IMG/VR virus record: IMGVR_UViG_3300023296_000874
Span: 31,594 to 95,593 of that record
Length of the DNA stretch: 64,000 nt
Source of the DNA: a virus
Strand: one strand, 5' to 3'
Part shown: positions 5,939 to 41,216 of the stretch, one piece after another
Layout of the letters: the number at the start of each line of letters is the position of its first letter
Position numbering within the stretch: the stretch's first letter is position 1
The notes under the pieces: model-generated
What the model was told of the DNA's origin: nothing
What the model saw: only the letters and a program-made list of their open reading frames with translations
Databases searched by the model: none
Made by a program: the position numbers and the translations under genes

Positions 5939-5956
5939 GGTCTCTCAAACAAGCTG

Positions 5957-9344: not shown

Positions 9345-9365
9345 GGCACCTCCGTTACCTCATGA

Positions 9366-9395
9366 TAACGTACCCAAGGGGGAGGTACTCAGAGG
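9366..9395 (-). promoter_or_regulatory. Promoter-like motif TAACG-N17-CTCAGAGG, 22 nt upstream of ATG 9344, followed by RBS GGAGGTG
   Basis: Motif family. Confidence 0.5.
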
Positions 9396-10723: not shown

Positions 10724-10735
10724 GTTCCTGGCCTC

Positions 10736-11635: not shown

Positions 11636-11702
11636 TGTTGGTCCTCTTTCAGTCAAAAGACAAAGCTGGACCAAGAAAGGGCGAGGAGTTCGAAACCCTC
11701 AC

Positions 11703-12894: not shown

Positions 12895-12897
12895 AGC

Positions 12898-13269: not shown

Positions 13270-13498
13270 CAACTCTCTCCTGTTCGGCTTCGTCATCCCA
13301 GTGCATGTGCAGAAGGCGGCGGGAAGGGCTTGACTCATCGAGCCCTTTGGCGTCCATCTCCTCCACCATTGCCCAGGTGAAGCTGCATGTGCCGTGTCCT
13401 TCTGCATACACGGTCACACCCTCGGGAATCTCCTCGATGATCTCTGCCATCACGAAGTCGTTGATGGGGTTCCAGAACACCCGTACCATTCGTGCCAC
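13250..13498 (-). CDS. Hypothetical acidic protein
   Basis: ORF track. Confidence 0.45.
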   Translation of the reverse strand: MARMVRVFWNPINDFVMAEIIEEIPEGVTVYAEGHGTCSFTWAMVEEMDAKGLDESSPSRRLLHMHWDDEAEQERVDALGLT

Positions 13499-14207: not shown

Positions 14208-14501
14208 TCAGAACTCGTTCCCGAATCGGCTCCGTCGGTTGCGTTGAGCCTCTTCGTGGTCACGGGCGCGCTCTGCCTTCTCTTCAGCGGCTTCGGCTGC
14301 AGCCGCTTCGACGGCCTCAAGGCCGGGCCAGTTGAGGATCTGCCCGGTAGCAGCGTTGATCTCCAGCTCGAGGTAGTCACCGCCACCGATGCCAATGCCA
14401 GAGGGCACGTAGCCGTCATGGTCACTGCCATCGGGCCAGGTGATGCCGCACATGTCGCTCACCTTGCCGTTCACATGAATGGTCTTGATCTCGTCGCTCA
14501 T
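14208..14501 (-). CDS. Hypothetical protein
   Basis: ORF track. Confidence 0.45.
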   Translation of the reverse strand: MSDEIKTIHVNGKVSDMCGITWPDGSDHDGYVPSGIGIGGGDYLELEINAATGQILNWPGLEAVEAAAAEAAEEKAERARDHEEAQRNRRSRFGNEF

Positions 14502-15229
14502 CCTCTCACCTCAGCGGGCAGTCCTGCGGGGATGCCCAGAAGGTCGCAGAGCTCACTCTCGGAGCTCACGACGTTGACGCCCCATGCTGGAAACACGTTG
14601 CGAAGGAAGTTGTTGTGGTGGATGCGCTTGAAGTCACCCACCAGGAAGCTGGGCACCACAACCTGATAGCCCATGGCGGTCGCCCGCTGCACGATGGAGC
14701 TCACCACGATGTGCGTCACGAAGCCGCCCACAACCACGCACACCTGGAGCGGGTGAAGGCCTTCATGCAAGCCCTCGAGCTGCTCCTTCAGGTCGGTCTC
14801 GAAGAAGCTGTCGAAGGTGGTCTTGGCGATTCGGTAGTCGATGTAGGGCGCAACGGCGTCCACCACTTCGGCCTCGAAGGAGTTCTCGTCAGCGTGCTCG
14901 CCGTACACGGCAAGCTCCTTCATCTGGAGCGGGTCGTTCCAGTTGTGGCTGTCGATGGTGGCGAGCTGGGGAATGTCCGCACGCTTCAACGTCTGCGCCC
15001 ACACCCCGAGGTGGTCACCCATCAGAGCGAGGTTGCGCTCACCGATGTGGAGCGCCGGGTAGCCGTCACCGCGCATCTTGCTCTTCTCAGAGTCAGGGAT
15101 CTCAGCAGCGGTGCAAGCGAACGCCTTGGTGGCATCTGCCCAAACCATGATGGTCATCTGCGGGCTCACCGGCCCACCCATGGAGGGGATGTTGAGGTCG
15201 GGGAAGTACTCAGCGTTGGGCGTGGGCAT
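14498..15229 (-). CDS. Isochorismatase-fold-like protein (tentative; catalytic Cys not evident at the expected position)
   Basis: LQVCVVVGGFVTHIVVSSIVQRATAMGYQVVV resembles the isochorismatase/cysteine-hydrolase core strand-helix. Confidence 0.35.
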   Translation of the reverse strand: MPTPNAEYFPDLNIPSMGGPVSPQMTIMVWADATKAFACTAAEIPDSEKSKMRGDGYPALHIGERNLALMGDHLGVWAQTLKRADIPQLATIDSHNWNDPLQMKELAVYGEHADENSFEAEVVDAVAPYIDYRIAKTTFDSFFETDLKEQLEGLHEGLHPLQVCVVVGGFVTHIVVSSIVQRATAMGYQVVVPSFLVGDFKRIHHNNFLRNVFPAWGVNVVSSESELCDLLGIPAGLPAEVRG

Positions 15230-18988: not shown

Positions 18989-19407
18989 ACTCCAATCTCC
19001 AGGTATGGGTTCTGAGGATCATTCGTGTTGGTGATGGCGATGATGCCGTCCAAATCTCTGAAAATGGTAGCCATCACTTCGTCGTAGGTGTTCCGGTTGA
19101 TGATCTGGTCCCTGTGCTTGAGGCACTGACCCTCCGCGAGGAGGATGTCAGGGGTGTACCGCTCCATGGTGGAGGGCCTCCTGTCCAAGACGAGGAGCAG
19201 CCTCTTGTCCTCGTTGTTCGCCAGTTCGCGCCACCGAAGCAGGTACGCTGACCGGACCTGGTACATGGACAGCAACGAGGTCATTTCGACGTTGAGGTCT
19301 GCCCTTGCAGCCTCGGTAGCTGCAAGGGTTTGCATGGCTCCTTCTGACACCCCCTCTTCCGGAGGGGGGTCAATCTCAAGTAGGAGGTGAAGCCTATCGA
19401 GAGCCAC
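18985..19407 (-). CDS. Hypothetical protein. Probable GTG start giving N-terminus VALDRLHLLLEIDPPPEEG (motif shared with 1198/1712 paralogs); alternative ATG at 19335
   Basis: The ORF-track N-terminus overlaps prs. GTG at 19405-19407 immediately precedes the DRLHLLLE motif. Confidence 0.4.
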   Translation of the reverse strand: MALDRLHLLLEIDPPPEEGVSEGAMQTLAATEAARADLNVEMTSLLSMYQVRSAYLLRWRELANNEDKRLLLVLDRRPSTMERYTPDILLAEGQCLKHRDQIINRNTYDEVMATIFRDLDGIIAITNTNDPQNPYLEIGV

Positions 19408-20380
19408 CCCAGCCTCGCGGGAGGTGGTGAAGCACGGAGTCCACCAACACCGGAGCGCATCGCATGATGCGGAAGATGCCGGAGGTGCCTGGCTTGTCAA
19501 GGGTGTTCACCATCTTCACGGCGCGCGGGTGGCTGTCAAAGGAGTACACCGCGTCGAGTACGCCGTCGAACATGGCGTGCGTGTCGGCGGGGCTCTTGGT
19601 GTAGACGCCGTGGCTCAGGATCGCGCTGACGCCAATGGCACCCGCGTCCATGTAGCTCTTCGCTCCACCCACGAGGCTGCTACCGCTCCGGGTCATGTCG
19701 TCCACGAGGATCACGTACTTGCCCTTGACGTCGGCGCTGACGTTGGTCACCTCGGTGGTCCCGCCGTCGATGCGTCGCTTGCCGATGAAGGCCGGGAGCC
19801 AGCCACCCATCTCGGAGGCGATGTACTCCACACGCTTCGCACCACCGGCATCAGCGGAGCCAATCACGGCATCAGCGACGCCCTGCTCAGCCACGATCTC
19901 GCGGATCGCGTCGAGGATGATCGGCTGTCCACGAGAGTGGATCTGGTGGGCTCGGTCTCCGAAGTAGTGGGGGATGCCCTCTGCATGGAGATCGAGGAAC
20001 ACGATCCGGTTGCCGTTGTAGGCCTCGGGGATGGCGCTGAGCAGCCGGGCGCGCGTCTTGGCAGTCACCACCTCACGCGTCTTGGGCTTGGCGCGCTCCA
20101 TGGTGCTGTACCCGAAGTAGGGGATCACGATGGTCAGAGAGCGAGCTCCGTAGGCCACAATCGCGCAGCAAGCGTCGAACATCTCCATCGTGTCGTTGTC
20201 GTTGATGGTGCCGCCGAGGTACACCACGTCACGGTCACGCACTGAGGTTTCGATGCGCTGGTACCGCTCCCCGTCAGGGAAGGTCTTGATCAGCACCTCG
20301 CCCCGGTCGAAGCAGGGGTCTACGTCAACAAACGTAGGGGCGAGGTACTCGTAGCTTCGGGTAGCAAAGAGAAGAGGCAC
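19394..20380 (-). CDS. prs: Ribose-phosphate pyrophosphokinase (PRPP synthetase) family; could alternatively be an ADP-ribose pyrophosphokinase (Adps)-type homolog
   Basis: IPYFGYSTMERAKP (Prs N-domain), GSADAGGAKRV, PRPP-binding loop VILVDDMTRSGSSL. Confidence 0.8.
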   Translation of the reverse strand: MPLLFATRSYEYLAPTFVDVDPCFDRGEVLIKTFPDGERYQRIETSVRDRDVVYLGGTINDNDTMEMFDACCAIVAYGARSLTIVIPYFGYSTMERAKPKTREVVTAKTRARLLSAIPEAYNGNRIVFLDLHAEGIPHYFGDRAHQIHSRGQPIILDAIREIVAEQGVADAVIGSADAGGAKRVEYIASEMGGWLPAFIGKRRIDGGTTEVTNVSADVKGKYVILVDDMTRSGSSLVGGAKSYMDAGAIGVSAILSHGVYTKSPADTHAMFDGVLDAVYSFDSHPRAVKMVNTLDKPGTSGIFRIMRCAPVLVDSVLHHLPRGWGGSR

Positions 20381-20393: not shown

Positions 20394-21581
20394 TTAGAGG
20401 ACGCTCTCTACGATACGAACGTAGAGGTCATCCAGCTTGTCCATGTCGGGGCTGTAAGGTAGCACGGGAGTGAGCTCGGGAAGGGGCTCGAGGCCCTTCT
20501 TCACCCGCGCAGTCACACGCTGCTTCTCGGTACCGTAGTACGATGTGTAGATGTCACCGAGAGCGGCGTTCTCGCGATCAGCCCAGTCCACCAACTCGTC
20601 GTAGGTCCAGGCACCCTTGCGGATAGCGAGGAGCTCTTCACGGTCGATCCCGCCGCGCCACACATGCACCTTGCCCGTCGTCAAGATCTCCCGTCCCATG
20701 CGGAGCAGGCGAACGAGGTGGGCACCGTGCTTGGTGTCGTAGCCGGAGGCAGCTTCCAGCGCAGCCCGCTTGGGGTTCCGCTGACGCTTCCAGGTCTCGA
20801 AGCTCTTCCAGTTCTTTTGGGCGTCCTTGTACCGCTTCTCACCCTTGAGGGCCTCGAGCAGTCCTTCGTCGATCCCGATGGAGCGTGCGGCAGCAATCCA
20901 CAGTTCATCGTCGGTGGTCACGCCGATGGTGGCGAGGGTCTCAGCGATGTTGTCCTTGGCGCGGATCTTCTCGCTGTCGGCCATTTCGCCGAAGTCCCAC
21001 TTCCACTCGTCAAGCTGCTTGTCGATGGCGGCGAGGAGCACGTTGCGCTGATGCTGCGTCACCACTTCCTCACCGAGGCCAAACTCCTCGCGGGTCGGCT
21101 TGTGGGTCGGAGGGTTGAGCAACCAGGCCCGGTGTCCCTTGATGCGCTTGAGCTGCTGGAAGGCGTAGCCGGTGAAGCGGTGCTTGGCGGCTCCACTCAG
21201 GAAGAGGTCCCGGTGTTCGCGGAGCAACTGCCCGGCCCAGTTGTGCATGAGCAGCTCTTCGTCGCGGCAGAAGAGCACGTCGAGCATTCCGGGGTTGCAG
21301 TCGGCGGTCAGCTTCATGAACTTGCCGAGGCCGTACACGACGCCCTCGAGCTTCTCGCGTTCGGCGGCGTCCATCTGCTCGGCGTCGAGGTACTTGCGGA
21401 AGGGTTCCATCTGCCCAGGCTTGTCGCACTGGTCGAAACGCTTGCGGAAGGTCAAGTGGTACGGACGTGGAGGTAGGCAGACGCCCTTGAGGTCTACGTC
21501 CGAAGTGTCGGTGTGGAGCCCGTAAGCTCGGGAACCAGCCACTCCAACGAGGATCGCAGAGTCATGTAGGTCGAAATCCAT
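20394..21581 (-). CDS. Pol-beta-superfamily nucleotidyltransferase with a large helical C-terminal domain
   Basis: GVAGSRAYGLHTDTSDVDLKGV ([GS]-x9-13-DxD). 13-nt spacing to prs implies co-transcription. Confidence 0.7.
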   Translation of the reverse strand: MDFDLHDSAILVGVAGSRAYGLHTDTSDVDLKGVCLPPRPYHLTFRKRFDQCDKPGQMEPFRKYLDAEQMDAAEREKLEGVVYGLGKFMKLTADCNPGMLDVLFCRDEELLMHNWAGQLLREHRDLFLSGAAKHRFTGYAFQQLKRIKGHRAWLLNPPTHKPTREEFGLGEEVVTQHQRNVLLAAIDKQLDEWKWDFGEMADSEKIRAKDNIAETLATIGVTTDDELWIAAARSIGIDEGLLEALKGEKRYKDAQKNWKSFETWKRQRNPKRAALEAASGYDTKHGAHLVRLLRMGREILTTGKVHVWRGGIDREELLAIRKGAWTYDELVDWADRENAALGDIYTSYYGTEKQRVTARVKKGLEPLPELTPVLPYSPDMDKLDDLYVRIVESVL

Positions 21582-21604
21582 TGTGGCCTCCTTGCACAGC
21601 TATA

Positions 21605-21635
21605 CAACGCCACGAAGGCCCTGAAAGTCAGATAC
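21605..21635 (-). promoter_or_regulatory. Promoter-like motif, weaker (CAACG-N17-GTCAGATAC), upstream of the NTase-prs operon
   Basis: Motif family. Confidence 0.35.
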
Positions 21636-27223: not shown

Positions 27224-28717
27224 TCACCTCATTGTCGGGAACAGAATCACGTCCCGAATTGATTGTGTGTCTGTCAACAGCATCACGAGCCGGTCGATGC
27301 CAATCCCCTCACCGGAGGTGGGAGGCATACCGAAGCTCAACGCGTCGATGTAGTCCTGGTCGAAGTACATGGCTTCATCGTCCCCGCGTGCCTTGGCAGC
27401 AGCCTGGGCCTGGAAACGAGCAGCCTGCTCAACGGGGTCGTTCAGCTCTTGGAAGCCGTTGGCGATTTCCATACCGGCGATGTAGAGCTCGAAGCGGTCT
27501 GCTACCTCTGGGTCATCAGCAGATGCTCGAGAGAGTGGGCTGATGTCCAAGGGGAATCCGGTCACGAAGGTCGGCTGGATCAGCTTGTCCTCAACGTACT
27601 CGTCGAAGTAGAGCTGGAACCACCGCCCGATGGTCCGGGGGAGCTTGGTAGCGTCCGGGTGGTCCTGTACCCACCTCGAGCGCATCTCGGGCATGGAGAA
27701 GGGGTCGTTGATGCCCGCGTGCTCCATGATCAGGTCGGCCATGCTCACGCGCCTGAAGGTGGTCAGGTCAAGCTCGTGCCCGTCGTAGGTGCAGACGTCC
27801 ATCGGAAGGAACTCGCCAACCCGGCAGGCTTCCTCGTAGATGACGCGGTTGTTGGCACCACGGATGATGGCTTCGGTGGTGTCCATCAGGTCAGCCGGTG
27901 TGGCGTGGGCCTGATAGAACTCCAGCATGGTGAACTCGGGGTTGTGCGTCCCGTCCACTCCCTCGTTCCGGAAGTTGCGGTTCAGCTCGAACACTCGCTC
28001 GTAGCCACCCACGATGAGCCTCTTGAGGTAGAGCTCAGGGGCGATGCGTAGGTAGAGGTCCTTGTCGAGAGCGTTGTGGTGCGTCACGAATGGTCGTGCG
28101 TTCGCACCGCCTGGGAGCGTCTGCATCATCGGCGTCTCCACCTCCATGAACCGATGGTCTTCAAAGTACCTCCGGATGTAGGATACGATGGTGCTGCGCG
28201 CACGGAACCGGTCGCGAGTGTCTTGGCTCACGATGAGGTCGAGGTACCGCTGACGGCGCTGCTGCTCCACGTCGGTGAACCCCGCGTGCTTGTCCGGCAG
28301 GCTCTTGATGCACTTGGAGTAGAGCGCAAGGCTGTCCACCTTGAGGCTCAGGTCACCGCGTCGGGTACGGATGAGCTGCGCTTCTGCGTACACCCAGTCG
28401 CCGATGTCCAACTTCTTCCACACGTCGGCGTACATGACGGGGCCGATGCCCGCACGGCGCACGAACAACTGCATCCGGCTTTCGCCATCCTCGATGAAGG
28501 CGAAGCCAATCTTGCCCATCTCGTTCTTCTGGACGATGCGTCCGGCCACACGGTAGACGGTGGTCTGCGCCTCCAACTCCTCCGCGCTCAGATCAGCACC
28601 GATGCGCAAGATCTCGAGCAGCCGGTGGCTGAGGTCCTTGGAGACGGGATAGGGATCTACGCCTTCAGCGCGTAGTGCGTCCAACTTTTCCAGCCGTGCT
28701 GGTTCAAATTCGCTCAC
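27224..28717 (-). CDS. lysS: Lysyl-tRNA synthetase (class II, LysS-type)
   Basis: N-terminal OB/anticodon-binding region. Motif 2 FRNEGVDGTHNPEFTMLEFY. Motif 3 GEGIGIDRLVMLLT. Confidence 0.85.
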   Translation of the reverse strand: MSEFEPARLEKLDALRAEGVDPYPVSKDLSHRLLEILRIGADLSAEELEAQTTVYRVAGRIVQKNEMGKIGFAFIEDGESRMQLFVRRAGIGPVMYADVWKKLDIGDWVYAEAQLIRTRRGDLSLKVDSLALYSKCIKSLPDKHAGFTDVEQQRRQRYLDLIVSQDTRDRFRARSTIVSYIRRYFEDHRFMEVETPMMQTLPGGANARPFVTHHNALDKDLYLRIAPELYLKRLIVGGYERVFELNRNFRNEGVDGTHNPEFTMLEFYQAHATPADLMDTTEAIIRGANNRVIYEEACRVGEFLPMDVCTYDGHELDLTTFRRVSMADLIMEHAGINDPFSMPEMRSRWVQDHPDATKLPRTIGRWFQLYFDEYVEDKLIQPTFVTGFPLDISPLSRASADDPEVADRFELYIAGMEIANGFQELNDPVEQAARFQAQAAAKARGDDEAMYFDQDYIDALSFGMPPTSGEGIGIDRLVMLLTDTQSIRDVILFPTMR

Positions 28718-28843: not shown

Positions 28844-30415
28844 TTAGGCTGCCGCAGCCACCGCTTCCGCGCGGGCTCGGGTACACGTCTCGATCAAGCT
28901 CAGGGTGATGCCGTCCACGGCGGGTCGGTGTTCGAAGCCGTCACGTCGCGCCGAGTCACCGGGTCCGTACACACGCCAGCCCTTCGGGAGGTTGCCGTAC
29001 TGACACACCATCGTAGCGGGTCCGTGTGAGGGGTGAGCAGCGTTCTCGCGCACGGCGAGTACCGGGATGCCGGGGAGGCTCTGCTTCCCGCTCCAACCCT
29101 CTTCCAGCTCATCGCCGAACTTCATGGTCGGTCCGTACTTGGACGTCCAGGCGAGCTTGTAAACCATGCTCACCAAGCCACGTCGGTAGCCGGTGGGCTC
29201 CGGGCGGTCGATGAAGTAGCCGCCCGCGCCAAACAGCGTCACCTCTTCGGGGTAGTCAACCTCGATGCGGAGCGCCTCGTACCGTGCAACGTCCTTGTCG
29301 TCGATGCCGTCTTCAAATACCCACGGGCGGGGTCGGATGCCGCGTGCCTTGATCTCGCTCACGATGTAGCGGAACTGCTCCTCAAGGGAGCCGCTGTCGG
29401 GTCGCATCCCGTCGTTCCGGTCCGGAAACTCTTCCATGAGCTTCAGGGCGGTCGGGATGCCCACCTTCATCGTGTCGTTGGTGTCGAGCAGCATGATCAC
29501 GAGGGGCATTGCGGCGATGTGTGCGCGGAAGGCGCGTTCGTCGTTGCCACCGTGGCGCATGATGCCCTCATGGCCCAGCGTGCCAACTGCCTTGATGTCC
29601 AGCACGTAGGCACCGTAGGCGTTGGAGGTCAGCGTGAAGCCGAGGTCCTTCAGAGCCTTGAGCGCGATGAGGTGCTGCTCCATGCAGGTTGCGGCGCGGA
29701 GGCCAACCTCGAAGATGCGGTTCGGGCTCACGCCGGAGGCCAGCATCTTGATGCCCTGCAACTGCACCGCGTTGTAGTAGCTGAGCTCGTCCACGGTGAT
29801 GCCGTTTTCGATGTCCCGCAGCTCCTGTCGGAAGTCGGCATCGCCGAAGTCCCTGCCCTTGTGGGCACCGAGGATCGCCTCCATGGTGAGCTCCTTCTGG
29901 CGCTCACAGGTCACGGTGCGGATGGTCTCGAGGAAGGCGGGCATCGTGTCGCCCTCGCGGGCCTTGATGTAGGCGGTCGCTACCTGCATCTGGTAGCTGA
30001 AGCGTCCCGAAACCAACGGCTCGAGCCAGCTTGCGATGGCCTGAGGAGCTCGCACGGTAGCCACGGGCTCACGGGGAGCAGCGTACTCGCCAAAGGGTGT
30101 CGCGTAGAGCACCTCAAGGCTGGAGCCGTCCACGGAGTCCCACAGCATCTTCTCGGTCACGTTGAAGCCGAAGTGCTGCAGTAGCGCGCACTCTTCCTTC
30201 ACGGTCGCTGAGGTGGGGTTGGGGATCATCTCGCGGATCGCCGTCTCGGGATCCACAGGCATGAACATGAGCCCGCCGCGTCGGAAGCTCAGATAGAACA
30301 CTTCCTTCTCTTCGGGGCGTCCGCCAGCCATCATGGGCCACTTGTAGCCGTCCGATCCGAGGGTGCTTTCGCGCCAGGATCGCTTGCCTGCAAGTAGTTG
30401 TCGTAGAATGCTCAT
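28844..30415 (-). CDS. NAMPT-family (type II) phosphoribosyltransferase: nicotinamide phosphoribosyltransferase or related (Namat-like not excluded)
   Basis: SDGYKWPM (cf. TDSYKVTH), MRPDSGS (RPDSG), FGAGGYF (FGSGGG). Own promoter-motif copy 28 nt upstream. Confidence 0.7.
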   Translation of the reverse strand: MSILRQLLAGKRSWRESTLGSDGYKWPMMAGGRPEEKEVFYLSFRRGGLMFMPVDPETAIREMIPNPTSATVKEECALLQHFGFNVTEKMLWDSVDGSSLEVLYATPFGEYAAPREPVATVRAPQAIASWLEPLVSGRFSYQMQVATAYIKAREGDTMPAFLETIRTVTCERQKELTMEAILGAHKGRDFGDADFRQELRDIENGITVDELSYYNAVQLQGIKMLASGVSPNRIFEVGLRAATCMEQHLIALKALKDLGFTLTSNAYGAYVLDIKAVGTLGHEGIMRHGGNDERAFRAHIAAMPLVIMLLDTNDTMKVGIPTALKLMEEFPDRNDGMRPDSGSLEEQFRYIVSEIKARGIRPRPWVFEDGIDDKDVARYEALRIEVDYPEEVTLFGAGGYFIDRPEPTGYRRGLVSMVYKLAWTSKYGPTMKFGDELEEGWSGKQSLPGIPVLAVRENAAHPSHGPATMVCQYGNLPKGWRVYGPGDSARRDGFEHRPAVDGITLSLIETCTRARAEAVAAAA

Positions 30416-30442
30416 AATTCCTCGGGTGTCCAGTTACTCCAT

Positions 30443-30473
30443 CAACGACGGATACCCCGAGGAAGTTAGAGAG
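30443..30473 (-). promoter_or_regulatory. Promoter-like motif CAACG-N17-GTTAGAGAG, 28 nt upstream of the NAMPT-family gene
   Basis: Motif family. Confidence 0.5.
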
Positions 30474-30491: not shown

Positions 30492-31412
30492 TCAGCGGCG
30501 GGTACCAGTACGCACCATCAGGTTGAGGGTCTTCCCGCTCACTTTGAAGGTGGCTGTCTGTCCCCATGCGAACTCCAGCCGGTCAGATTCGATGCCGTCC
30601 CCGAAGATGACTCCACCTTCCTGCATACGCGACGTCACCTTGAGAGGAGCATCCGGCTCCACATACCCTTGCTGGATTGAAACGCCTGAGAAGGGGCTGT
30701 CCCAAGCCTCTCTCACCTGAAAGATCAGCACTCCCTCTTCGGGATCTGGGAAGGGCAGAGGGTTCCGGCGCTGTGATGCGACGGAGCTTGCCCAACCCGT
30801 ACAACCCGTACCGGAGCTGATGATCATACCAGAGGAGCTCTGGTACTCGGTGTGCTGCTCGTAGGCGATGTCGTACTTGGCGCTCTGATGGGAGTGGTGT
30901 CCGCAGAACAGCTCGTTGAGGGCGATGATCTTCCGTCCCTCCTCTTGCGTTTCGTCGTCCTTGATCTCCACCTCCACCATTGAGCGGCGCTGAAGCTTGG
31001 CGGTGTTGTTCTTGAGGTAGCCGTAGAGCAAGGGGATCTCCCGCTCACGCCACACCATCATCTTCGCCTTGTAGGAGGTGTCGGGGTTGATCCCGGCGAC
31101 AGTCTGCCCGTCCAGGTACTTGGCTACGTTCGGGACCAAGCCGTCCTGCCCCACAGCAACGATGATGTCACCGGGCTGAAAGACAAACCTGTCCAGATCG
31201 CTCCGGAGGCAGCTCGTCTTTCGCCAGGTGTGTGGTACATCGCGGAGGGCACGGGCAGCAACTTTCAAGGTGACGGCGTGCATCCGTTCCACCTTGTCCA
31301 TCGACTGCCCCATCAGCTCAAGCCTGAACCTCGCCATCTGAACGGTCCCGTGCTCTACGAGCAGAGATTCGTACTCGGTGGTTCTGCGAACCACTACTAC
31401 TCGAGGTTCCAC
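30492..31412 (-). CDS. NAD kinase-like (ATP-NAD kinase/DAGK catalytic fold) protein
   Basis: DIIVAVGQDGLV (GGDGT-like), TVAGINPD, SSSGMIISSGTGCTGWASS (cf. DGLIVSTPTGSTAYSLS). Confidence 0.6.
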   Translation of the reverse strand: MEPRVVVVRRTTEYESLLVEHGTVQMARFRLELMGQSMDKVERMHAVTLKVAARALRDVPHTWRKTSCLRSDLDRFVFQPGDIIVAVGQDGLVPNVAKYLDGQTVAGINPDTSYKAKMMVWREREIPLLYGYLKNNTAKLQRRSMVEVEIKDDETQEEGRKIIALNELFCGHHSHQSAKYDIAYEQHTEYQSSSGMIISSGTGCTGWASSVASQRRNPLPFPDPEEGVLIFQVREAWDSPFSGVSIQQGYVEPDAPLKVTSRMQEGGVIFGDGIESDRLEFAWGQTATFKVSGKTLNLMVRTGTRR

Positions 31413-34283: not shown

Positions 34284-34316
34284 TTTCACAGGACGGTGAT
34301 CGGGTTTCAATAGTGC

Positions 34317-34348
34317 AACGAGTTCAACCGGCGTCGAACTCAGAGCGT
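34317..34348 (-). promoter_or_regulatory. Promoter-like motif CAACG-N18-CTCAGAGCG upstream of clpP
   Basis: Motif family. Confidence 0.45.
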
Positions 34349-34355: not shown

Positions 34356-35081
34356 TCAGCCCGTCGCCCGAGCCTTGTCGCCCAACACGCTGTCGGCCGT
34401 CACGAAGGTTGCGCCCGCATCACCGAGGGTGCGGAGGCTGAAGTTCATGCCACCCTCGTCACCGCTCACGGGAGGCACATCGAGCGCCACACAGGCGTCG
34501 GTCACCACTTCCACGGTGTAGCCACGCTCGAGCAGTCCGGTCACGAAGCCGTCAACGCAGAAGCCGCCGAGGCAGTAGCCAAACACGCGGAAGATCACGT
34601 TGTCCTTGCCGCCCATCTCTTCCACGAGGTGTGCGATGTACGCCTCAGCGATGGGGTTGCTGAAGGCGCTGTACACCTCCTTCTCGAAGTAGAGGCCGAC
34701 GCCCGCAAGAGCCTCGGTCGTGAACTCCGTGGAGCCGTACACGCGGGGGCCGTTCCCAGCCTTGTCCTCGCCGATGCAGCCGTCGCCACCCCAGCTCATG
34801 GGGAGGAAGCGGAAGCGGGGAGGCAGCGTGCCGTCGAGCTTCAGCCAGTCCCAGGTGCCCTTGACGGCGTGGGTGGGGAAGATGCCACCGTTGTCGATGA
34901 ACTCCCAAGCGTCGTAGCTGTGGCTGTCCACGCAGCCAATGAGGGGCTCGTTGGTGGCAAGGGCGCGAGCCACAAGGCCACGAATGCGGTCGTTGACGGT
35001 GTCGTCAGCGACGGAGAGGTTGCCGTCCTTGTGTGCGAAGGCGTTGGCGGTGTCGACGTCGACGTTGATGTAGCGGGCCAT
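34356..35081 (-). CDS. Nicotinamidase/isochorismatase-family cysteine hydrolase (PncA-like)
   Basis: Alignable by eye to M. tuberculosis PncA: VDVDTANAF (cf. VDVQNDF), YFEKEVYSAFS (Lys region), GYCLGGFCV (Cys region). Confidence 0.6.
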   Translation of the reverse strand: MARYINVDVDTANAFAHKDGNLSVADDTVNDRIRGLVARALATNEPLIGCVDSHSYDAWEFIDNGGIFPTHAVKGTWDWLKLDGTLPPRFRFLPMSWGGDGCIGEDKAGNGPRVYGSTEFTTEALAGVGLYFEKEVYSAFSNPIAEAYIAHLVEEMGGKDNVIFRVFGYCLGGFCVDGFVTGLLERGYTVEVVTDACVALDVPPVSGDEGGMNFSLRTLGDAGATFVTADSVLGDKARATG

Positions 35082-35083
35082 GA

Positions 35084-35743
35084 TCAGGTCTCCTTGGAGA
35101 AGCGGTAGGTTGTTCGTCGGCCTTTGCTCTGCTCAGTCACCGGTTCGATGACGCCCAGCGCAGTAGCCTTCTTTCTCAAGTTCGAGCTGTCTTCCGCCTT
35201 GCCCGTGATGTGTCCCATCAGGTCGCGGTAGTCGCTCATGTTGAAGTTCATGTAGAGGAAGCCCGCAACCACGTCCGGGTCGTAGCGGTGCTTCTTGAGG
35301 AATTCCTGAGCGAACTCAAGGATGCCCCGATGGTCGAATGCAAGGTCCATGTTCAGCGCAGCGGCGAGTGGCGTCCACCCGTCGTGTCCCCTGAATACGT
35401 GGGAGATCGGGCAGATGTGCGCCACGCTGAGCACCTTGTCGCGGGTGTCCCGGTCGAAGCCGTCAAAGACGTGCATCTGTACCGGTTGAACCTGCGCGTG
35501 TGCCTCGGGCACGTAGCGTCGTAGGGAGCGGCGTACCGCATCAAAGAGGAGTTCGTTGGGCTTCACAAACGCGCCGGGGAGCGCCAACTGGCCCATCGCC
35601 GGAGGGTTGCGCCGCCTGATGAGCTTCACGCGGAGCTCAGGGTCTACCACTACAACGTCCACCGCCAGAGGCGGGTTCTTGTACTGCGAACGGTCGTAGT
35701 CCGCAAAGTACTCTTCGTCGGTGATGTGGGTTTCGTCGGGCAC
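35084..35743 (-). CDS. NrtR-like regulator: degenerate Nudix domain plus C-terminal winged HTH
   Basis: Degenerate Nudix box LPGAFVKPNELLFDAVRRSLRRYVPEA. C-terminal wHTH-like DYRDLMGHITG...NLRKKATALGVIEPV...GRRTTYRF. 3 nt upstream of the pncA-like gene. Confidence 0.5.
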   Translation of the reverse strand: MPDETHITDEEYFADYDRSQYKNPPLAVDVVVVDPELRVKLIRRRNPPAMGQLALPGAFVKPNELLFDAVRRSLRRYVPEAHAQVQPVQMHVFDGFDRDTRDKVLSVAHICPISHVFRGHDGWTPLAAALNMDLAFDHRGILEFAQEFLKKHRYDPDVVAGFLYMNFNMSDYRDLMGHITGKAEDSSNLRKKATALGVIEPVTEQSKGRRTTYRFSKET

Positions 35744-35792
35744 GCTGGTTATTCCTACTTGTTACTTGGTACGTTTTACCTTGTTGTCAGTA

Positions 35793-35821
35793 TAACGCCA
35801 GCGATGTGCAGAAAGTTAGAC
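35793..35821 (-). promoter_or_regulatory. Promoter-like motif TAACG-N17-GTTAGAC upstream of the nrtR-like/pncA-like pair
   Basis: Motif family. Confidence 0.45.
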
Positions 35822-36212: not shown

Positions 36213-36527
36213 TCAGAGGTATTTCGGGTCCTGCCACCAGTCCTGGCTTTCCAAATCAAGCATCTCGTAGAGGCGGTCTGGAAGTTCCGACAGCCCTTCC
36301 TCCCTGAACCACTCCCCACGCCACCGAATGCGGTAGCTGCGAAGTCGCCCATGGATGTAGAACTCGGTGGGTCCCTCTTTGGGGACGAGCAGGATGACCT
36401 TCAGCGTGTAGGGGTTCCCGGTCTGAAGCTCGTTGAGGCGGCGCTCAATGTCCTTGGTGCGTCCGATCTTCACCACCCCGGTCACCGCCGCTTGGATGAT
36501 GTACAGGTCCTCCCCAAACGATTTCAC
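36213..36527 (-). CDS. T5orf172/GIY-YIG-like domain protein
   Basis: LYIIQAAVTGVVKIGRTKDIERRLNELQTGNPY matches the T5orf172 (MUG113) signature. Confidence 0.6.
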   Translation of the reverse strand: MKSFGEDLYIIQAAVTGVVKIGRTKDIERRLNELQTGNPYTLKVILLVPKEGPTEFYIHGRLRSYRIRWRGEWFREEGLSELPDRLYEMLDLESQDWWQDPKYL

Positions 36528-37480
36528 AGGAAGAACGGGCTCTCCTCTACTACCGGCTGAGCAGGCAGGAGGAAAGAGACGTAGCGGGGTGAGGGGTCGA
36601 ACGGATTGAACTTGCGCTTGTAGGTCGCGTTGAAGCCATGCTTGCCACCTTCACCGATGGCTACTCCATCAGCTACGTGGGTCACACCCTGTCGCGCCAT
36701 GTCGGCAAAGCAGTCGTGTTGAGCCCATGCACTCAGGTTCGGTATGCCTCTGTCACATGCCATGCCTGTCGTGTGGCCCCAGCACGTTTCTGTCATGGGT
36801 TGGTTGAGGTGGATCACGAGCGGCTCTCCGTCAATGCGGTAGAGCCGGTTGATGCCGTCCTCGTAGTGCCGGTCGAGAATGTACTCGTATTTCCGGTAGT
36901 TGATGTTCATGCCGCCGCGCTCCTTGGACTCCTTGACCCAACGCTTCATCACCGCGCGGGCCTCCTCCAGGTTTCCGGAGTCGATGGGCTCAGCCGTGTA
37001 GCCGGTGGTGGTCCGCTTGAAGGCGTTGATGTCAGCTCGGAGGCGACGCCACTTCTTTCCAGAGAGTGTGTCGATCCCTGCAATGTCGTAGGTGTACTCG
37101 CCGTACTCACTGAATTTCCCAGGAGTGAGCTTGACGCCCTCTGCCATGAAGGCCGCAGCGATATCAGCGGCCCAGGAGGCTGGGACGTTCTCAATCTTGA
37201 GGTTCTTGTCCGTGCTTCCCTTGTACGCCTGCCACCACGCAACCAACTCGGGAATGACTGCGTCCTTGTCACCGTAGGCTCGGTAGACACGGTAGTATTT
37301 CCCGTACTTCACACTGAAGAGGAGAAGCGTGTCCTCGCTGACGACCTTGTTGCCCTTGAACACTCCGTGGTTGATGAACCCGTAAGTGTAGGGGAGGCAG
37401 TCGGTCATTGTAGCTACACCGTCCATACGTGAACGGATGAAGGGGATGTCTGCCGTGGTCAGCGGGGTAGTTTCACTCAT
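36524..37480 (-). CDS. FemABX/MprF C-terminal (DUF2156)-like tandem-GNAT protein, paralog B (tentative aminoacyl-tRNA-dependent transferase)
   Basis: GKKWRRLRADINAFKR (cf. GKKYKxLRxxxNRFxR of DUF2156/Fem), YYRVYR, TCWGHT, RQGVTHVADG. Paralog of 38198..39166. Confidence 0.45.
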   Translation of the reverse strand: MSETTPLTTADIPFIRSRMDGVATMTDCLPYTYGFINHGVFKGNKVVSEDTLLLFSVKYGKYYRVYRAYGDKDAVIPELVAWWQAYKGSTDKNLKIENVPASWAADIAAAFMAEGVKLTPGKFSEYGEYTYDIAGIDTLSGKKWRRLRADINAFKRTTTGYTAEPIDSGNLEEARAVMKRWVKESKERGGMNINYRKYEYILDRHYEDGINRLYRIDGEPLVIHLNQPMTETCWGHTTGMACDRGIPNLSAWAQHDCFADMARQGVTHVADGVAIGEGGKHGFNATYKRKFNPFDPSPRYVSFLLPAQPVVEESPFFL

Positions 37481-38216
37481 CGAAGAGGCTCATGTATTCG
37501 TGGTCATCACCACCCAAGATGTCCGGGTGGATCAGGCGCTCGGGAACGTCGGGAGCTTCTGCGCCGCCTGAGGTCTCCCGGTGAAGGTAGAAGGGCCGGT
37601 TGTACTTGAGAACCGTCGTAGGGAGGAAGTCCCTCGGGCCTGTGTAGTAGAAACCGTCCACGCCGGTAGATGCAGCGATGGCTGCTTCCATGCGCGGGTC
37701 AAGAGTGGCAACCGGAATGCCCTGGCTCTTGAACTTGAGCGTGATGACTGCGTAGCCCTTCTCGGCCTTGGCGTTCAAGAGGTCGAACAGCATCCCAACG
37801 TCTTCGGGTCCGGTGGTGGTGAACAGCACGCCGCAAGAGAGGACGAAGTCCCACGTCGGGGCCTTGTTCAGCTCTTCCCAGTAGTTCCCGATGCGGAAGT
37901 CGTACTCCGGCACTCGGGTTCGGGCGTCCAGCACGTTGGCAGGGACGATGTCGAACCCTTGGTACTTCAGCTCGGGCCTCTGGTCGCGTAGCATCTCAGC
38001 CAGCGTGCCCGTGCCGCACCCACACTCGAGAATGGAGGTGGCGTTGGCTGGGATCAGGTCGATGAGGCCCTGCCAATGAGCAACCATGTCCTCGGGAGAG
38101 TACTTGTACCACTTGAAGCGGGTGGTGTCGTCAGGGTCCTCGTACTTCCCGGCTGACCGAGTGTAGGAGTCCCGCCAACGGAGGATCGTTTCATCTGCTA
38201 CTGGAATGGAAGACAT
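37473..38216 (-). CDS. Class I SAM-dependent methyltransferase
   Basis: Motif I ILECGCGTGTLAEML. Sits between the two paralogs. Confidence 0.75.
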   Translation of the reverse strand: MSSIPVADETILRWRDSYTRSAGKYEDPDDTTRFKWYKYSPEDMVAHWQGLIDLIPANATSILECGCGTGTLAEMLRDQRPELKYQGFDIVPANVLDARTRVPEYDFRIGNYWEELNKAPTWDFVLSCGVLFTTTGPEDVGMLFDLLNAKAEKGYAVITLKFKSQGIPVATLDPRMEAAIAASTGVDGFYYTGPRDFLPTTVLKYNRPFYLHRETSGGAEAPDVPERLIHPDILGGDDHEYMSLFDE

Positions 38217-39166
38217 TCATCATCCTCATACTTGCCGTCAATGGCCAGCCTGACACCGGACACGGCACCCTCGATAGGGCGGAATTTGTCCTTGTTCTTG
38301 AAGTTGGCGACACGCTGTCCATCTGCGATGTGCGTGACGCCGCGTTGCTGAAGAAGGCAGAACGCCTCCCAGCTTGACCACTCCCACAGGCCTCGGGGCC
38401 TGAACAGCGTGCCGTCTTCCTGCTCGGTGCCCAAAGCAATCCCAAGAGTGTGAGCCCAGCACGTGTCGGTGATCTTGTGCATGATCTGAAGGGCTACGGG
38501 CTCTCCCGCCACCTTGTAGAGCAGATGCATACAATCGTCGGTCCTGAAGTTGTCGAAGGCGTAGGTGTACTGCTTGAAGTTGAGGTTGAAGACGTTCCTC
38601 ACCTTCCTTGCCTGACGTGCCCACTCCTTGATGACGTACCATGCCTCCGTGTGCGTGACGTCCTCTACAACCTGGATCACTTCCCGTTCGGGGTTGTCCC
38701 TCTTGAACTTATTGAGGTCCCGGCGAAGCCTGACGTACTTCTTGCCCGGCATCTCGGTGATGCAGTCGATGGGAATCACGTCCTCGGGCCACACGTTGCG
38801 CTCCACGGAGCCAGCGATGGTGTCGAGGTACGGGAAGAGTGCCTGTCCGGTCTCCTCCGCGAGGTACATGAAGATCAGCTTGTCAGCCTCGTCGCGATAG
38901 CGGGCAATCCACGCCTTGAGCAGCTCAAGCTGGTCAGGCAGTGGTCCCCAAGAGCGGTAGACGCGGTAGTAGGTCTTCCCCTTGCCACGTTTGATGTGAA
39001 ACAGCAATGCCGCCGTGTCACTCTCGTAGAGATGCGCCTTGAAGGAGCTGTTCGCTCCCAGTGCGTAGGGAGGGCAGTCGTAGTAGCTCAGACTGTCCTC
39101 AGGTACGAGCGAGGCTACACGCGCCGCTGACGCTGGGGTCATGTCTGTCGTCTGAATGTCAGTCAT
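38198..39166 (-). CDS. FemABX/MprF C-terminal (DUF2156)-like tandem-GNAT protein, paralog A
   Basis: GKKYVRLRRDLNKFKR, YYRVYRSWG, TCWAHT, QQRGVTHIADG. Confidence 0.45.
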   Translation of the reverse strand: MTDIQTTDMTPASAARVASLVPEDSLSYYDCPPYALGANSSFKAHLYESDTAALLFHIKRGKGKTYYRVYRSWGPLPDQLELLKAWIARYRDEADKLIFMYLAEETGQALFPYLDTIAGSVERNVWPEDVIPIDCITEMPGKKYVRLRRDLNKFKRDNPEREVIQVVEDVTHTEAWYVIKEWARQARKVRNVFNLNFKQYTYAFDNFRTDDCMHLLYKVAGEPVALQIMHKITDTCWAHTLGIALGTEQEDGTLFRPRGLWEWSSWEAFCLLQQRGVTHIADGQRVANFKNKDKFRPIEGAVSGVRLAIDGKYEDDECLPFQ

Positions 39167-40010
39167 TCATCTTGTCCGGCTGCATGAAGGTTTGCCTCAC
39201 TCCGATTACCCAGAACAAGTCACCTGGCTCGATAAAGGGAATCGATTTCGCTTCATAGATCGGGTCAAGAGCGATACCACGCCAATACGGGTCCTTGTAG
39301 GGCTGATGGTAGTCGAGAGGAGAGCGAACGAGCGTGACCATGTCCTTCCAATGGGTGTCACGGATGTTGACCATGACGTCGCTGTCAGCTTCTTCCCACA
39401 TGGAGGAGTAGTCGTTGGTGATGGGAGCGTACTTTCCAAGCCTGTCGTTGGGGTCTGCGCCCACTACAACGCCGAGCACGGGTACGTCCCACCCAATGTC
39501 GAGCAGTCCGTGGAGAAGGCCGGACAGGCTCATAGCTGAACCCACAGGAATGACGATGCGCTTCGCTTCTCGTGGAAGGTTCGCTGCCTGCCCACGGGTC
39601 TGCTGCACGGCTTCCCAGCAATCCATTCCGAAGGGGATGTCTGCCCACCCGAGCCTCTTGGCGTCTTCCCGAGCTCGAGAGATGATGACGCTGTTGTAGC
39701 CCGCGCGGTGTTGAACCACCTCAGCTCCAGCGGCCTTGGCAGCGAGTACCTCGGGCGACAATTCACCTTCGGGAGTGTGAACCCTACACGGAATGCCGAG
39801 CTTCTGGGCGATGTGGGCGACGATGTTCACCTGCGGGCTGGATCGGCTACCCGCCGTCACCAAACCCTTCGCTCCTTGAGCGAGGTGCCAACAGGTGCGA
39901 ACTTTCCCACCCGGTACTCCTCCTACAATGAACTTGTCGTCGCGCTTGACCCACACATCCCCGTGTTTCTCAACAGGGGTGAGGGCCTTGGGGTCCGTTA
40001 CATGATCCAC
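39159..40010 (-). CDS. PLP-dependent enzyme, fold type II (ACC deaminase/D-cysteine desulfhydrase family-like)
   Basis: VKRDDKFIVGGVPGGKVR (cf. KRDDL..GGNKxRK). Confidence 0.6.
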   Translation of the reverse strand: MDHVTDPKALTPVEKHGDVWVKRDDKFIVGGVPGGKVRTCWHLAQGAKGLVTAGSRSSPQVNIVAHIAQKLGIPCRVHTPEGELSPEVLAAKAAGAEVVQHRAGYNSVIISRAREDAKRLGWADIPFGMDCWEAVQQTRGQAANLPREAKRIVIPVGSAMSLSGLLHGLLDIGWDVPVLGVVVGADPNDRLGKYAPITNDYSSMWEEADSDVMVNIRDTHWKDMVTLVRSPLDYHQPYKDPYWRGIALDPIYEAKSIPFIEPGDLFWVIGVRQTFMQPDKMND

Positions 40011-40071: not shown

Positions 40072-40401
40072 TCAGACCCGCTTCGTCACCTTGACTACTG
40101 CTTGGTAGAGGTCCGGCAGGCTCTCTTTGCCGCCCTTGGACTCTACGTTGTCCCAGTGAATGAGTGCCACAACCTGCGCGGTGTGGTCTCCATCAGCCAT
40201 CCGCCTGGCAAGCTGTCCACCATCTCGAGCAGCGCCCTTCCGATCCGCGTCGGGAGAGGTGTACTCGTACTTGCCGGAGTCGGTCAAGCCTCGTGGTCGT
40301 CGGTCAGCGGCCCGGAGGATGTCCTTCCAGTTCGGATGGGGGAGGTCAGCCAGCAGTTCAGCGTGCTTCAAGGTGTCAATTCGGATGACGTGGTCTTGCA
40401 T
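40072..40401 (-). CDS. Hypothetical protein
   Basis: ORF track. Confidence 0.45.
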   Translation of the reverse strand: MQDHVIRIDTLKHAELLADLPHPNWKDILRAADRRPRGLTDSGKYEYTSPDADRKGAARDGGQLARRMADGDHTAQVVALIHWDNVESKGGKESLPDLYQAVVKVTKRV

Positions 40402-41126
40402 CAGATCTCCCTCAGGGTGTCACGGATGTACGCGCCAGCTCTGAACAGTGATTCAAACGTTCCAGCGTCCGTCCACCACCCGTCACATACCCTGAAGCTG
40501 AGCTCGCCGCTTCGGAGGTAGTAGAGATGGAGGTCGGTCACTTCGAGCTCGCCCCGTTCGGAGGGCTCAAGTCGGTCAATCACGTCCCACACACGCCGGT
40601 CAAAGCAGTAGAGGCCCGTGATTGCGAGTGGGGAGATGTACTCTTTCGGCTTCTCGATGATGTGGGTCACCTTGGGGCCGCGCACCACAGCTACGCCGAA
40701 GCGGTGAGGGTCGTCCACCTCTTTGAGGAGGATGCGCCCACCACTGTCGAAGGAGCGGATGAAGTCCTCGGTCACACCAGGCTCGAACACGTTGTCGCCC
40801 AAGATGACACACACGTCATCCCCGTCAACGAAGTCCTTGGCGTAATGCAGAGCAGCGGGGATACCGCCAGCTCCATCCTGGTAGGTGTAGTGGATGTTCA
40901 CCTCGGGGCCGAAGGTCTTCTTCCCGTTGCCCAAGAGCTGAAGGAAGTCACCTGCCCAGTTGCCCCCGGTCACGATCATGATCTCTGTCACCCCTGCGCC
41001 CACGAGTGTCGCGATTGGGTAGTGAATCATGGGCTTGTCGTAGATCGGAAGCAGGTGCTTGTTGGTGACGGCGGTCAGCGGTAGTAGTCGCGAGCCGTAC
41101 CCGCCTGCCAAGATGACTCCTTTCAT
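40401..41126 (-). CDS. Sugar-phosphate nucleotidyltransferase (RmlA/GlmU-like NDP-sugar pyrophosphorylase)
   Basis: MKGVILAGGYGSRLLPLT (GGxGxRLxPLT). Confidence 0.8.
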   Translation of the reverse strand: MKGVILAGGYGSRLLPLTAVTNKHLLPIYDKPMIHYPIATLVGAGVTEIMIVTGGNWAGDFLQLLGNGKKTFGPEVNIHYTYQDGAGGIPAALHYAKDFVDGDDVCVILGDNVFEPGVTEDFIRSFDSGGRILLKEVDDPHRFGVAVVRGPKVTHIIEKPKEYISPLAITGLYCFDRRVWDVIDRLEPSERGELEVTDLHLYYLRSGELSFRVCDGWWTDAGTFESLFRAGAYIRDTLREI

Positions 41127-41152
41127 GTGTATCTCCTTCTGGAGAGCCAGAC

Positions 41153-41180
41153 CTACAAATGGATCATGATCCTTTTGTAG
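41153..41180. promoter_or_regulatory. Near-perfect 28-bp palindrome CTACAAATGGATCATGATCCTTTTGTAG (26/28) in the divergent intergenic region; candidate operator; contains two GATC sites
   Basis: Reverse-complement identity at 26/28 positions; central GGATCATGATCC is itself a perfect palindrome. Confidence 0.5.
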
Positions 41181-41216
41181 ACGCCGGATGCAAGACCAGT
41201 CGTCTCCGGAGGCATC

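Follow-up and report, generated by a model that had tools for sequence, protein, structure and literature searches.

The DNA analyzed here is a 64,000-nucleotide stretch of an IMG/VR virus record (IMGVR_UViG_3300023296_000874, positions 31,594 to 95,593), called the window in what follows, and its main subject is a pair of adjacent genes for an NrtR-like regulator and a PncA-like nicotinamidase. The nrtR-like gene (35084..35743, minus strand) starts with GTG and encodes 219 aa, with a Nudix domain at about residues 25-150 and a C-terminal winged helix at about residues 155-215. The pncA-like gene (34356..35081, minus strand) encodes 241 aa, predicted to be a nicotinamidase by its active-site residues and fold. 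Both open reading frames lie where an earlier reading of this DNA (the initial annotation) had placed them, on the minus strand, and every peptide string quoted there is present: LPGAFVKPNELLFDAVRRSLRRYVPEA from residue 55, NLRKKATALGVIEPV from residue 188 and GRRTTYRF from residue 208 in the regulator, and VDVDTANAF from residue 7, YFEKEVYSAFS from residue 131 and GYCLGGFCV from residue 168 in the hydrolase. The hydrolase gene directly adjoins the regulator gene as described, although the gap from the TGA stop of nrtR to the ATG of pncA is 2 nt (35082-35083) and not 3 nt, and the AAGGAG ribosome-binding site of the pncA-like gene lies within the 3' end of the nrtR-like gene. Because of this short gap and the overlapping site, the two genes are almost certainly co-transcribed. 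Together with a candidate operator in the nrtR leader and further NAD-salvage genes in the window, the pair is read here, with a probability of roughly 0.6 and on the basis of sequence and predicted structure, as a phage operon under a palindrome-bound repressor that ADP-ribose (ADPR) would release, its nicotinamidase then feeding a PncA-PncB salvage route.

The Nudix plus winged helix-turn-helix architecture proposed for the regulator is borne out by profile matches, by sequence matches to solved structures and by the predicted fold. The 219-aa protein is matched by Pfam NUDIX at 24.5 bits (cutoff 21.1, residues 25-99), and the NCBIfam NrtR model NF050029 aligns with residues 6-210 (E 1.9e-17). 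Its best sequence match in the PDB is the NrtR of Shewanella oneidensis (3GZ5, E 2.9e-15, residues 5-193), followed by AraR of Bacteroides, itself an NrtR-family regulator (E 5e-12, residues 34-204). An AlphaFold2 (AF2) model built on 58 homologues has a mean predicted local distance difference test score (pLDDT) of 93.9, and full-length Foldseek comparison gave template-modeling (TM) scores of up to 0.75 to AraR (5bs6) and of 0.68-0.70 to NrtR 3GZ5 and the DNA-bound 3GZ6, the matches also including the Nudix domain of Shewanella NrtR with ADPR (3gz8). The motifs that read DNA are conserved, both D-x-S-N-L-R-K-K, in which the recognition-helix residues SNLRKK occupy positions 187-192, and the R-x-x-Y-R-F wing. 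As noted initially, the Nudix box is degenerate, with RRSLRRY in place of the RE-x2-EE of hydrolases. The catalytic glutamates are lost in every member of the phage clade, while RELxEETG is kept in the bacterial-like loci L009 and L011 and in L013, which is classified as viral by IMG/VR. Alignments of 15 and 58 sequences have L55, P56, G57, F59, R98, D99, R101, F136, D137 and H138 as invariant or near-invariant positions, so that the family signatures LPGxF, R98-D99-x-R101 and A-F-D-H138 are kept, with R98, D99 and H138 invariant. Identity to characterized NrtRs is only 25-30% for the window protein and 28-35% for the phage clade, and the NrtR proteins of five phage lineages are 40-50% identical to one another. 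The 219-aa protein is a divergent member of the NrtR family and no equivalog of the curated NrtR; the PHROGs label for its nearest family is 'MutT/NUDIX hydrolase'. Two further Nudix-related proteins were recorded. The phage-clade NrtR-like protein P0128 (345 aa) is extended at its N terminus by about 110 residues that contain an HNH-like Cys/His motif (CEVCG...HHHDY...CRDCHRKVH), and the window encodes a separate, stand-alone canonical Nudix hydrolase (9604-10182, minus strand, Pfam 61 bits), which could hydrolyze ADPR or other nucleotide derivatives.

In Shewanella NrtR, ADPR is contacted by Y10, F15, R41, N43, K76 and R98 (Chang et al. 2015, PMC4666351), and five of these six contacts are kept in the window protein, Y10, F15, R41, N43 and R98 corresponding to Y16, Y21, R44, N46 and R101. 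The ADPR-contact positions are those replaced in the arabinose-binding AraR (PMC4666351). Because five of the six contacts are kept, at positions that AraR has filled in, the ligand pocket looks nucleotide-competent; ADPR sensing is inferred from these residues, and it is plausible that the protein governs phage salvage genes as a sensor of ADPR. A repressor of this family may instead control the operon in response to another effector, such as NAD+ (compare NdnR of Corynebacterium), nicotinate adenine dinucleotide (NaAD), ATP or an ADPR-derived immune signal, an alternative that is unlikely but carries some weight. It is consistent with the family itself, in which AraR binds arabinose and NdnR responds to NAD (PMC4666351), with the lack of conservation of K76 and the variation of N46 among phage homologues, and with the low identity of the phage clade to characterized NrtRs (only 28-35%). 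What argues for ADPR is that the adenine and phosphate contacts Y16, Y21, R44 and R101 are kept, exactly those that AraR replaced (PMC4666351), and that the operon stands among NAD-salvage genes.

Upstream of the nrtR-like gene there is a copy of a general promoter-like motif (35789..35819, minus strand, CTAACTTTC-N13-GGCGTTATACT). The initial annotation had reported this copy, at 35793, and it is real; the motif, of the form CTCT[GA]A[GC]TT[CT]-N13/14-CGTT[GA], however, precedes at least 14 minus-strand transcription units in the window, including pncB, RlaP-prs and clpP, and therefore carries no NAD-specific information. Its copies include those at 35789-35819, 30439-30469, 21600-21631, 34313-34345 and 1174-1198, all on the minus strand, and similar elements are found in L007. 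An NAD-specific operator function upstream of nrtR, pncB and RlaP-prs was ruled out for the motif, which is non-palindromic and shared by at least 14 unrelated units, clpP among them. A promoter function is inferred from its position, and since the motif bears no resemblance to the sigma-70 consensus, it may be a phage-specific or host-specific promoter.

Between this motif and the ribosome-binding site of the nrtR-like gene lies the candidate NrtR operator, a 21-bp imperfect palindrome (35764..35784, minus strand, ACAAGGTAAAACGTACCAAGT) with the core GGTA-N5-TACC, which corresponds to GT-N7-AC, the published core of the NrtR box (PMC2330246). The pattern GGTA-N5/6-TACC has two occurrences in the 64 kb, where 0.37 would be expected; this and the other searches for operators and partner genes cover the 64-kb window, within a genome of at least 257 kb. 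The nrtR leader of L017 contains a perfect 8-N6-8 palindrome (ACTTGGTA-N6-TACCAAGT), the same element is present in the leader of L019, and the nrtR leaders of two loci that had no part in defining the pattern, L007 and L018, carry degenerate copies. In a pattern-free test of five leaders, the only 7-mers common to at least three of them were TACCAAG and GTACCAA (p about 0.017 relative to random segments of the same loci). In the bacterial-like L009, a canonical box (TTAGGGT-N7-ACCCTTA) precedes the pncB-like gene. Of the operator-like palindromes that the initial annotation proposed to look for, a candidate was found in the nrtR leader and none before prs or the phosphoribosyltransferase gene; no comparable site precedes any other gene of the window. 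As the sole good site is in the nrtR leader, autoregulation of nrtR-pncA is suggested rather than a wider regulon, and the sequence points to the nrtR-pncA unit alone as the regulon visible in the window.

It is improbable that the Nudix-winged-helix protein does not regulate phage genes at all and acts instead as a sponge for an ADPR-type molecule, or binds the NrtR operators of the host and so reprograms host NAD metabolism. Phage sponges for nucleotide signals are an established strategy, the Nudix pocket is conserved although catalytically dead, and a single weak operator candidate was found in 64 kb, all of which would fit such a role. Regulation of the phage's own operon is favored, in turn, by the conserved D-x-S-N-L-R-K-K motif and R-x-x-Y-R-F wing, by the overlay of the predicted fold on the NrtR-DNA complex 3GZ6, by the recurrence of a palindrome with the family core geometry in the own leader of independent phages, and by the regulator-first, tightly coupled gene order, which is typical of autoregulated repressors.

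The hydrolase belongs to a family of more than 120 proteins. Pfam Isochorismatase (PF00857) matches its C-terminal half only, at 33.7 bits (cutoff 27), and the NCBIfam PncA model PRK11609 gives 19.5 bits (cutoff 174; E 6.5e-4). In an alignment of 52 family members the catalytic triad D10/K134/C175 and the metal site D52/H54/H71 are invariant, as are the family-specific motifs DAWEF and FEKEVY, and the metal-site segment aligns with the same motif of a solved nicotinamidase. A D-x-H...H metal site is characteristic of nicotinamidases within the isochorismatase superfamily. The AF2 model (pLDDT 94.3) has nicotinamidases as its 21 best Foldseek matches in the PDB, from S. pneumoniae, S. mutans, B. 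subtilis, Leishmania, Pyrococcus and Acinetobacter, with a best E-value of 7e-10 (3o91) and the top 14 at 1e-8 or better. The TM-scores to them are about 0.6, these values being query-normalized and lowered by an insertion of about 45 residues (roughly 80-125). From the invariant active-site residues and the nicotinamidase folds, the PncA-like identity given initially is accepted, for a PncA-type enzyme of a divergent subfamily. It is improbable that it acts on another amide, such as nicotinamide mononucleotide (NMN) or nicotinamide riboside, in which case the cassette would not perform classical deamidation of free nicotinamide: the score of 19.5 against 174 bits on the curated PncA model, the insertion, the invariant DAWEF and FEKEVY motifs and the TM-score of only about 0.6 would be compatible with another substrate, but the nicotinamidase metal site and D/K/C triad are invariant, the best 21 structural matches are all nicotinamidases, and the gene is linked to a nicotinate phosphoribosyltransferase (NaPRTase) gene in 74 of 80 bacterial loci. 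A second isochorismatase-family gene (14498..15229, minus strand, Pfam Isochorismatase 56.6 bits) was said initially to lack the catalytic Cys, and its product indeed reads GGFVT where the alignment has GGFCV. With Val in place of the catalytic Cys, it is probably no cysteine hydrolase; a homologue follows pncB-nadE-VWA4 in L019.

A probable functional partner of PncA in the window is a divergent PncB-type NaPRTase (28844..30415, minus strand, 523 aa), which has its own copy of the promoter motif at 30439..30469. All ten of its NCBIfam matches are NaPRTases (best TIGR01513, E 1e-24), and so are its sole PDB matches (2f7f and 4yub), so the 'NAMPT-family' label of the initial annotation was dropped; the match to the phage NAMPT PHROG is weak (E 9e-5). 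The protein is very divergent from canonical NaPRTases (87 vs 297 bits), with orthologues at 53% identity in L007 and at 34-35% in bacterial-like contigs, and pncB orthologues adjoin pncA and nrtR in L007, L009, L011, L013 and L019. Because the transferase matches only nicotinate-type enzymes, PncA is predicted to feed the Preiss-Handler route, with the PncB-like enzyme as its natural partner in a deamidated pathway that would not compete with a nicotinamide route. The suggestion that PncA serves only to clear nicotinamide, as a signal or an inhibitor, gained no support and is made unnecessary by the pncA-pncB linkage. Directly upstream of pncB, a 306-aa protein (30492..31412, minus strand) resembles NAD kinases weakly (NCBIfam NAD kinase models at E about 1e-4, and NADK2 in the PDB at E 1e-5 over residues 147-211), so that its identity as an NAD kinase is a weak assignment.

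The ribose-phosphate diphosphokinase Prs (19394..20380, minus strand), whose gene is 8.5 kb from that of the transferase, passes the TIGR01251 cutoff (146.9 bits vs 113), matches phosphoribosyl pyrophosphate (PRPP) synthetases in the PDB at E 1e-26 and resembles cellular Prs more than the phage Prs PHROG; it is likely to be the PRPP supplier for PncB. Of the Preiss-Handler set, PncA and PncB were found, while NadD and NadE were not found within the 64 kb; tblastn with the proteins of relatives detected no nadE, nadD or ADP-ribosylglycohydrolase gene in the window, and no NAMPT-type or NMNAT-type gene was found there either. Several features around prs were recorded independently. A 21-bp palindrome with perfect 7-bp arms (20406-20426, minus strand, CTCTACG-TTCGTAT-CGTAGAG) stands about 25 nt upstream of the prs start, within the 3' end of the RlaP gene, and could be a hairpin or a protein site. 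The prs gene is flanked by genes of RNA-repair type, for a polynucleotide kinase/phosphatase (17759-18730) and an RlaP-family nucleotidyltransferase (20394-21581), both on the minus strand, and RlaP and prs appear to share a single promoter.

An identity of these two enzymes with the Adps and Namat of the NARP1 pathway is not backed by the family or PDB matches, the transferase being of the nicotinate type and Prs passing the cellular cutoff; from sequence, Adps-like chemistry keeps a small probability (PMC13586617). A deamidated version of NARP1 is very improbable as well; in it, the Prs-like enzyme would make ADPR pyrophosphate, the transferase would join this to nicotinate to give NaAD, and NadE would convert NaAD to NAD+. 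Such a scheme would account for the lack of NadD in the clusters of the clade of the window, as in the L007 cluster nrtR-pncA-x-pncB-nadE-prs, and for the divergence of the transferase (87 vs 297 bits), and Adps is a Prs homologue (PMC13586617). Yet Prs passes its curated cutoff and lies nearer to cellular Prs than to the phage PHROG, the same transferase works in Myxococcota operons without prs, and NadD is universally available from hosts and is included in L013 and in phage G.

The window has a G+C content of about 60%, and nearly all of its densely packed genes share one strand, most of them without a known family. It encodes PolA, a DnaB-like helicase, an SNF2 helicase, a topoisomerase, ClpP, a T5orf172 protein, RlaP, the polynucleotide kinase/phosphatase and a lysyl-tRNA synthetase (LysRS), together with many open reading frames without a known family; no virion genes (capsid, portal, terminase) were found within the 64 kb. 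The nearest relative of its PolA comes from an uncultured phage of 485 kb, and phrog_8638, a phage-only family, is matched by a 528-aa ATPase (E 4e-97). A contig of up to 257 kb carries the identical hydrolase sequence, and syntenic relatives are found on contigs of up to 478 kb. The phage of the window is also represented by ERZ27316044 k141_124603 and by JGI 3300023235 Ga0222634_1000055. In line with the location inside a phage given initially, the window is likely, on this indirect evidence and on a gene content typical of huge phages, to be huge-phage DNA. A single-sequence search of IMG/VR with the NrtR-like protein and a megablast search of the region against INPHARED gave no match. That the window is a piece of a bacterial chromosome or of another mobile element, and the cassette an ordinary cellular NrtR regulon, as 64 kb without a capsid, portal or terminase gene and with numerous metabolic genes might suggest, is highly unlikely given the dense one-strand genes mostly without known families, the phrog_8638 match and the PolA relative, the presence of T5orf172, RlaP, a phage-type replication module and a private genome-wide promoter motif, and the distant hydrolase relatives on contigs that IMG/VR classes as viral. 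Matches to 'Acinetobacter phage MD-2021a' were rejected as phage evidence, as they are bacterial contigs with prs, an annotated nicotinate phosphoribosyltransferase and an nrtR-like gene. The L021 record under this name (CAKLQF020000015.1) contains ABC transporters, an AraC regulator, efflux pumps and the prs/nicotinate phosphoribosyltransferase/nrtR-like cluster, and resembles a piece of a bacterial chromosome more than a phage.

The order nrtR then pncA is kept in five divergent huge-phage lineages (the window, L007, L017, L018 and L019), usually after a T5orf172 gene and before clpP. The 478-kb contig L007 has nrtR, pncA, a 69-aa open reading frame, pncB, nadE and prs, and the uncultured phage contig L019 has nrtR and pncA with pncB and nadE farther on. 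L013 (IMG/VR UViG 3300017971_000185, 497 kb) has pncB, nadE, pncA, a nadD-like gene, a deaminase-like gene, nrtR and an ADP-ribosylglycohydrolase gene in a compact cluster (5219-13274) that also includes a deoxyribosyltransferase-like/Nudix fusion and in which the Nudix box of nrtR is intact. NadE is encoded by the relatives L007 and L019, and NadD is found in L013 and in phage G. NrtR is also encoded by a 636-kb uncultured phage.

In bacterial genomes sampled at one per species, the PncA subfamily hardly occurs outside Myxococcota (Nannocystaceae, Polyangiaceae, Sorangium, Chondromyces, Minicystis). Among 80 Myxococcota loci, the pncA-like gene directly follows a pncB-like gene in 74 and directly precedes an NrtR gene in at least 40 (median gap 36 nt), and 38 show the full pncB-pncA-nrtR layout. 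These operons share with the window the unusual PncA subfamily (DAWEF, YFEKEVYS; 36-53% identity across genome loci, 57% to L009, a metagenomic locus), the divergent NaPRTase (34-35% identity) and an adjacent NrtR. They differ in having the order pncB-pncA-nrtR and an intact RE-x2-EE; in the phage, where nrtR precedes pncA, the Nudix box is dead and pncB stands apart, at a distance of 4.7 kb and with a promoter of its own. Identity is about 57% between the PncA proteins but only about 29% between the NrtR proteins. In view of these Myxococcota loci, the phage nrtR-pncA unit reads as a rearranged copy of a cellular pncB-pncA-nrtR operon, and Myxococcota are its probable source. With this bacterial counterpart and an analogue in phage G, the cassette is less exotic than the initial annotation implied.

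Other groups of genes in the window were noted as separate observations. The LysRS gene (27224-28717; TIGR00499, 568 bits, full-length) is near two genes resembling LPG_synthase_C, the C-terminal domain of lysyl-phosphatidylglycerol synthase (36524-37480 and 38198-39166), in whose block there are also a methyltransferase (37473-38216), a PALP protein (39159-40010) and an NTP_transferase (40401-41126). The block from the LPG_synthase_C-like genes to T5orf172 is syntenic in L007 and L018 and may be an aminoacyl-tRNA-dependent transferase module. A 28-bp near-perfect palindrome (41153-41180, plus strand, CTACAAATGGATCATGATCCTTTTGTAG) lies in the divergent intergenic region 41127-41216, where transcription switches strand, and could be an operator or an origin-like element.

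In the mechanism proposed for the phage operon, a dimer of the NrtR-like protein would bind the palindrome at 35764..35784 in its own leader and repress nrtR-pncA. ADPR, the co-product of nicotinamide when NAD+ is cleaved by host NADase defenses or other consumers, would fill the dead Nudix pocket and release the repressor. PncA would then convert nicotinamide to nicotinate, phage PncB would convert nicotinate to nicotinate mononucleotide (NaMN) with PRPP from phage Prs, and NadD and NadE, supplied by the host or encoded elsewhere in the phage genome, would complete NAD+. By analogy, the phage would thereby have adopted the logic established for NrtR (PMC2330246, PMC6800001).

Several observations weigh against this mechanism. 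As for the regulator, the Pfam NrtR_WHD match, at 19.8 bits, falls short of the cutoff of 27, and NF050029 gives 63.5 bits, far under its 400-bit equivalog cutoff, which the bacterial-like L009 NrtR likewise fails to reach at 159 bits; the contact K76 is not conserved, N46 varies among other phage-clade homologues, and the effectors of the family are not always ADPR, as AraR and NdnR exemplify (PMC4666351). As for the operator, no copies were found before pncB, prs, clpP or lysS with 3 mismatches allowed, which in the case of pncB and prs speaks against a coordinated salvage regulon, and the window copy itself carries 2 mismatches. Support for the operator is moderate, at p about 0.017 with a pattern partly defined from the same sequences, and the leader element could be an RNA hairpin instead. 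The absence of NadD and NadE from the window also counts against the scheme.

A stronger version of the proposal, in which the phage NrtR is a sensor of immune activation and ADPR from cleavage by a Sir2, TIR or similar effector, or a related ADPR-derived signal, occupies the dead Nudix pocket and switches on the genes that rebuild NAD+, is tentative and rather doubtful; in the literature searched, no description of such a virus-encoded inducible counter-defense circuit was found. NAD+ depletion is a major bacterial anti-phage strategy, and the reconstitution of NAD+ by phages (NARP1 to NARP3, NAD-jumbo phages) is an active topic, which has been described so far as sets of enzymes, with no phage metabolite-sensing regulator in the descriptions examined. 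If the phage NrtR is a real regulator, some huge phages took the control logic along with the enzymes, possibly tuned to ADPR, the very product of NADase defenses. The annotation of gp273-like proteins, labeled MutT/NUDIX hydrolases, is corrected in that they have the architecture of a regulator, and because phage G is cultured the idea is open to direct test. In addition, the affinity of the PncA and PncB genes to Myxococcota hints at where the host of these uncultured phages may be sought.

The nearest cultured analogue is Bacillus phage G (NC_023719), a jumbo phage whose gp273 (L020, 4854-5609, annotated 'MutT/NUDIX hydrolase') has NUDIX at 61 bits and NrtR_WHD at 37 bits, above its cutoff, and is probably a misannotated regulator. 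As in the window, the NrtR-architecture protein is accompanied by NAD-salvage genes, gp273 being followed by the isochorismatase gp275, the NaPRTase gp277 and NadD (gp281). Phage G belongs, however, to another lineage, with 25% identity to the window NrtR, a canonical short PncA and a canonical NaPRTase, and no convincing palindrome was found upstream of gp273-gp277.

Bacterial NrtR comes off its DNA when it binds ADPR, and operons that pair nrtR with pncA are a classical arrangement (PMC2330246, PMC6800001), examples being nrtR-pncA in Roseiflexus, pncB-nrtR-pncA in Blastopirellula and nrtR-pncA-pncB-nadD-nadE in Clostridium acetobutylicum (Rodionov et al. 2008, PMC2330246). The window shares with these regulons the Nudix plus winged-helix repressor architecture, the direct linkage to pncA and pncB, a palindrome (a candidate in the phage) that has the GT-N7-AC core and stands between promoter and start codon, and a Nudix box that has degenerated, as it has in the proteins of Shewanella, mycobacteria and streptococci. 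It differs in that its regulon appears confined to its own two-gene unit and in that the protein, compared with bacterial NrtR (3GZ5, 3GZ6, 3GZ8), is encoded by a huge phage, is shorter and has a truncated wing. A 2022 survey of viral NAD/ADPr systems placed the majority of phage Nudix domains in the NudE and NadM clades and listed Nudix-HTH factors in host systems only. NAD-jumbo phages with Preiss-Handler or salvage clusters have been described (Microbiome 2024, PMC11662467), as have NARP1, with Adps and the NAMPT-like Namat, NARP2, with NAMPT and NMNAT (bioRxiv 10.1101/2024.02.11.579819), and NARP3, with PnuC and NadR (PMC13464706); no phage-encoded NrtR or dedicated regulator is reported in PMC11662467, bioRxiv 10.1101/2024.02.11.579819 or PMC13464706. 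What is new here is an NrtR-type regulator in a phage, its parts and logic being already familiar and its setting not yet reported. The window has in common with NAD-jumbo phages and NARPs a large phage with its own NAD+ synthesis genes, which across such phages include pncB, nadD, nadE and pncA and are proposed to offset depletion. It differs from NARP1, as judged by family matches, in having no NAMPT-like transferase paired with a Prs-like ADPR pyrophosphokinase, from NARP2 in having no NAMPT-type or NMNAT-type gene in the window, and from the NARPs generally in its route, which would be the deamidated one through PncA and PncB.

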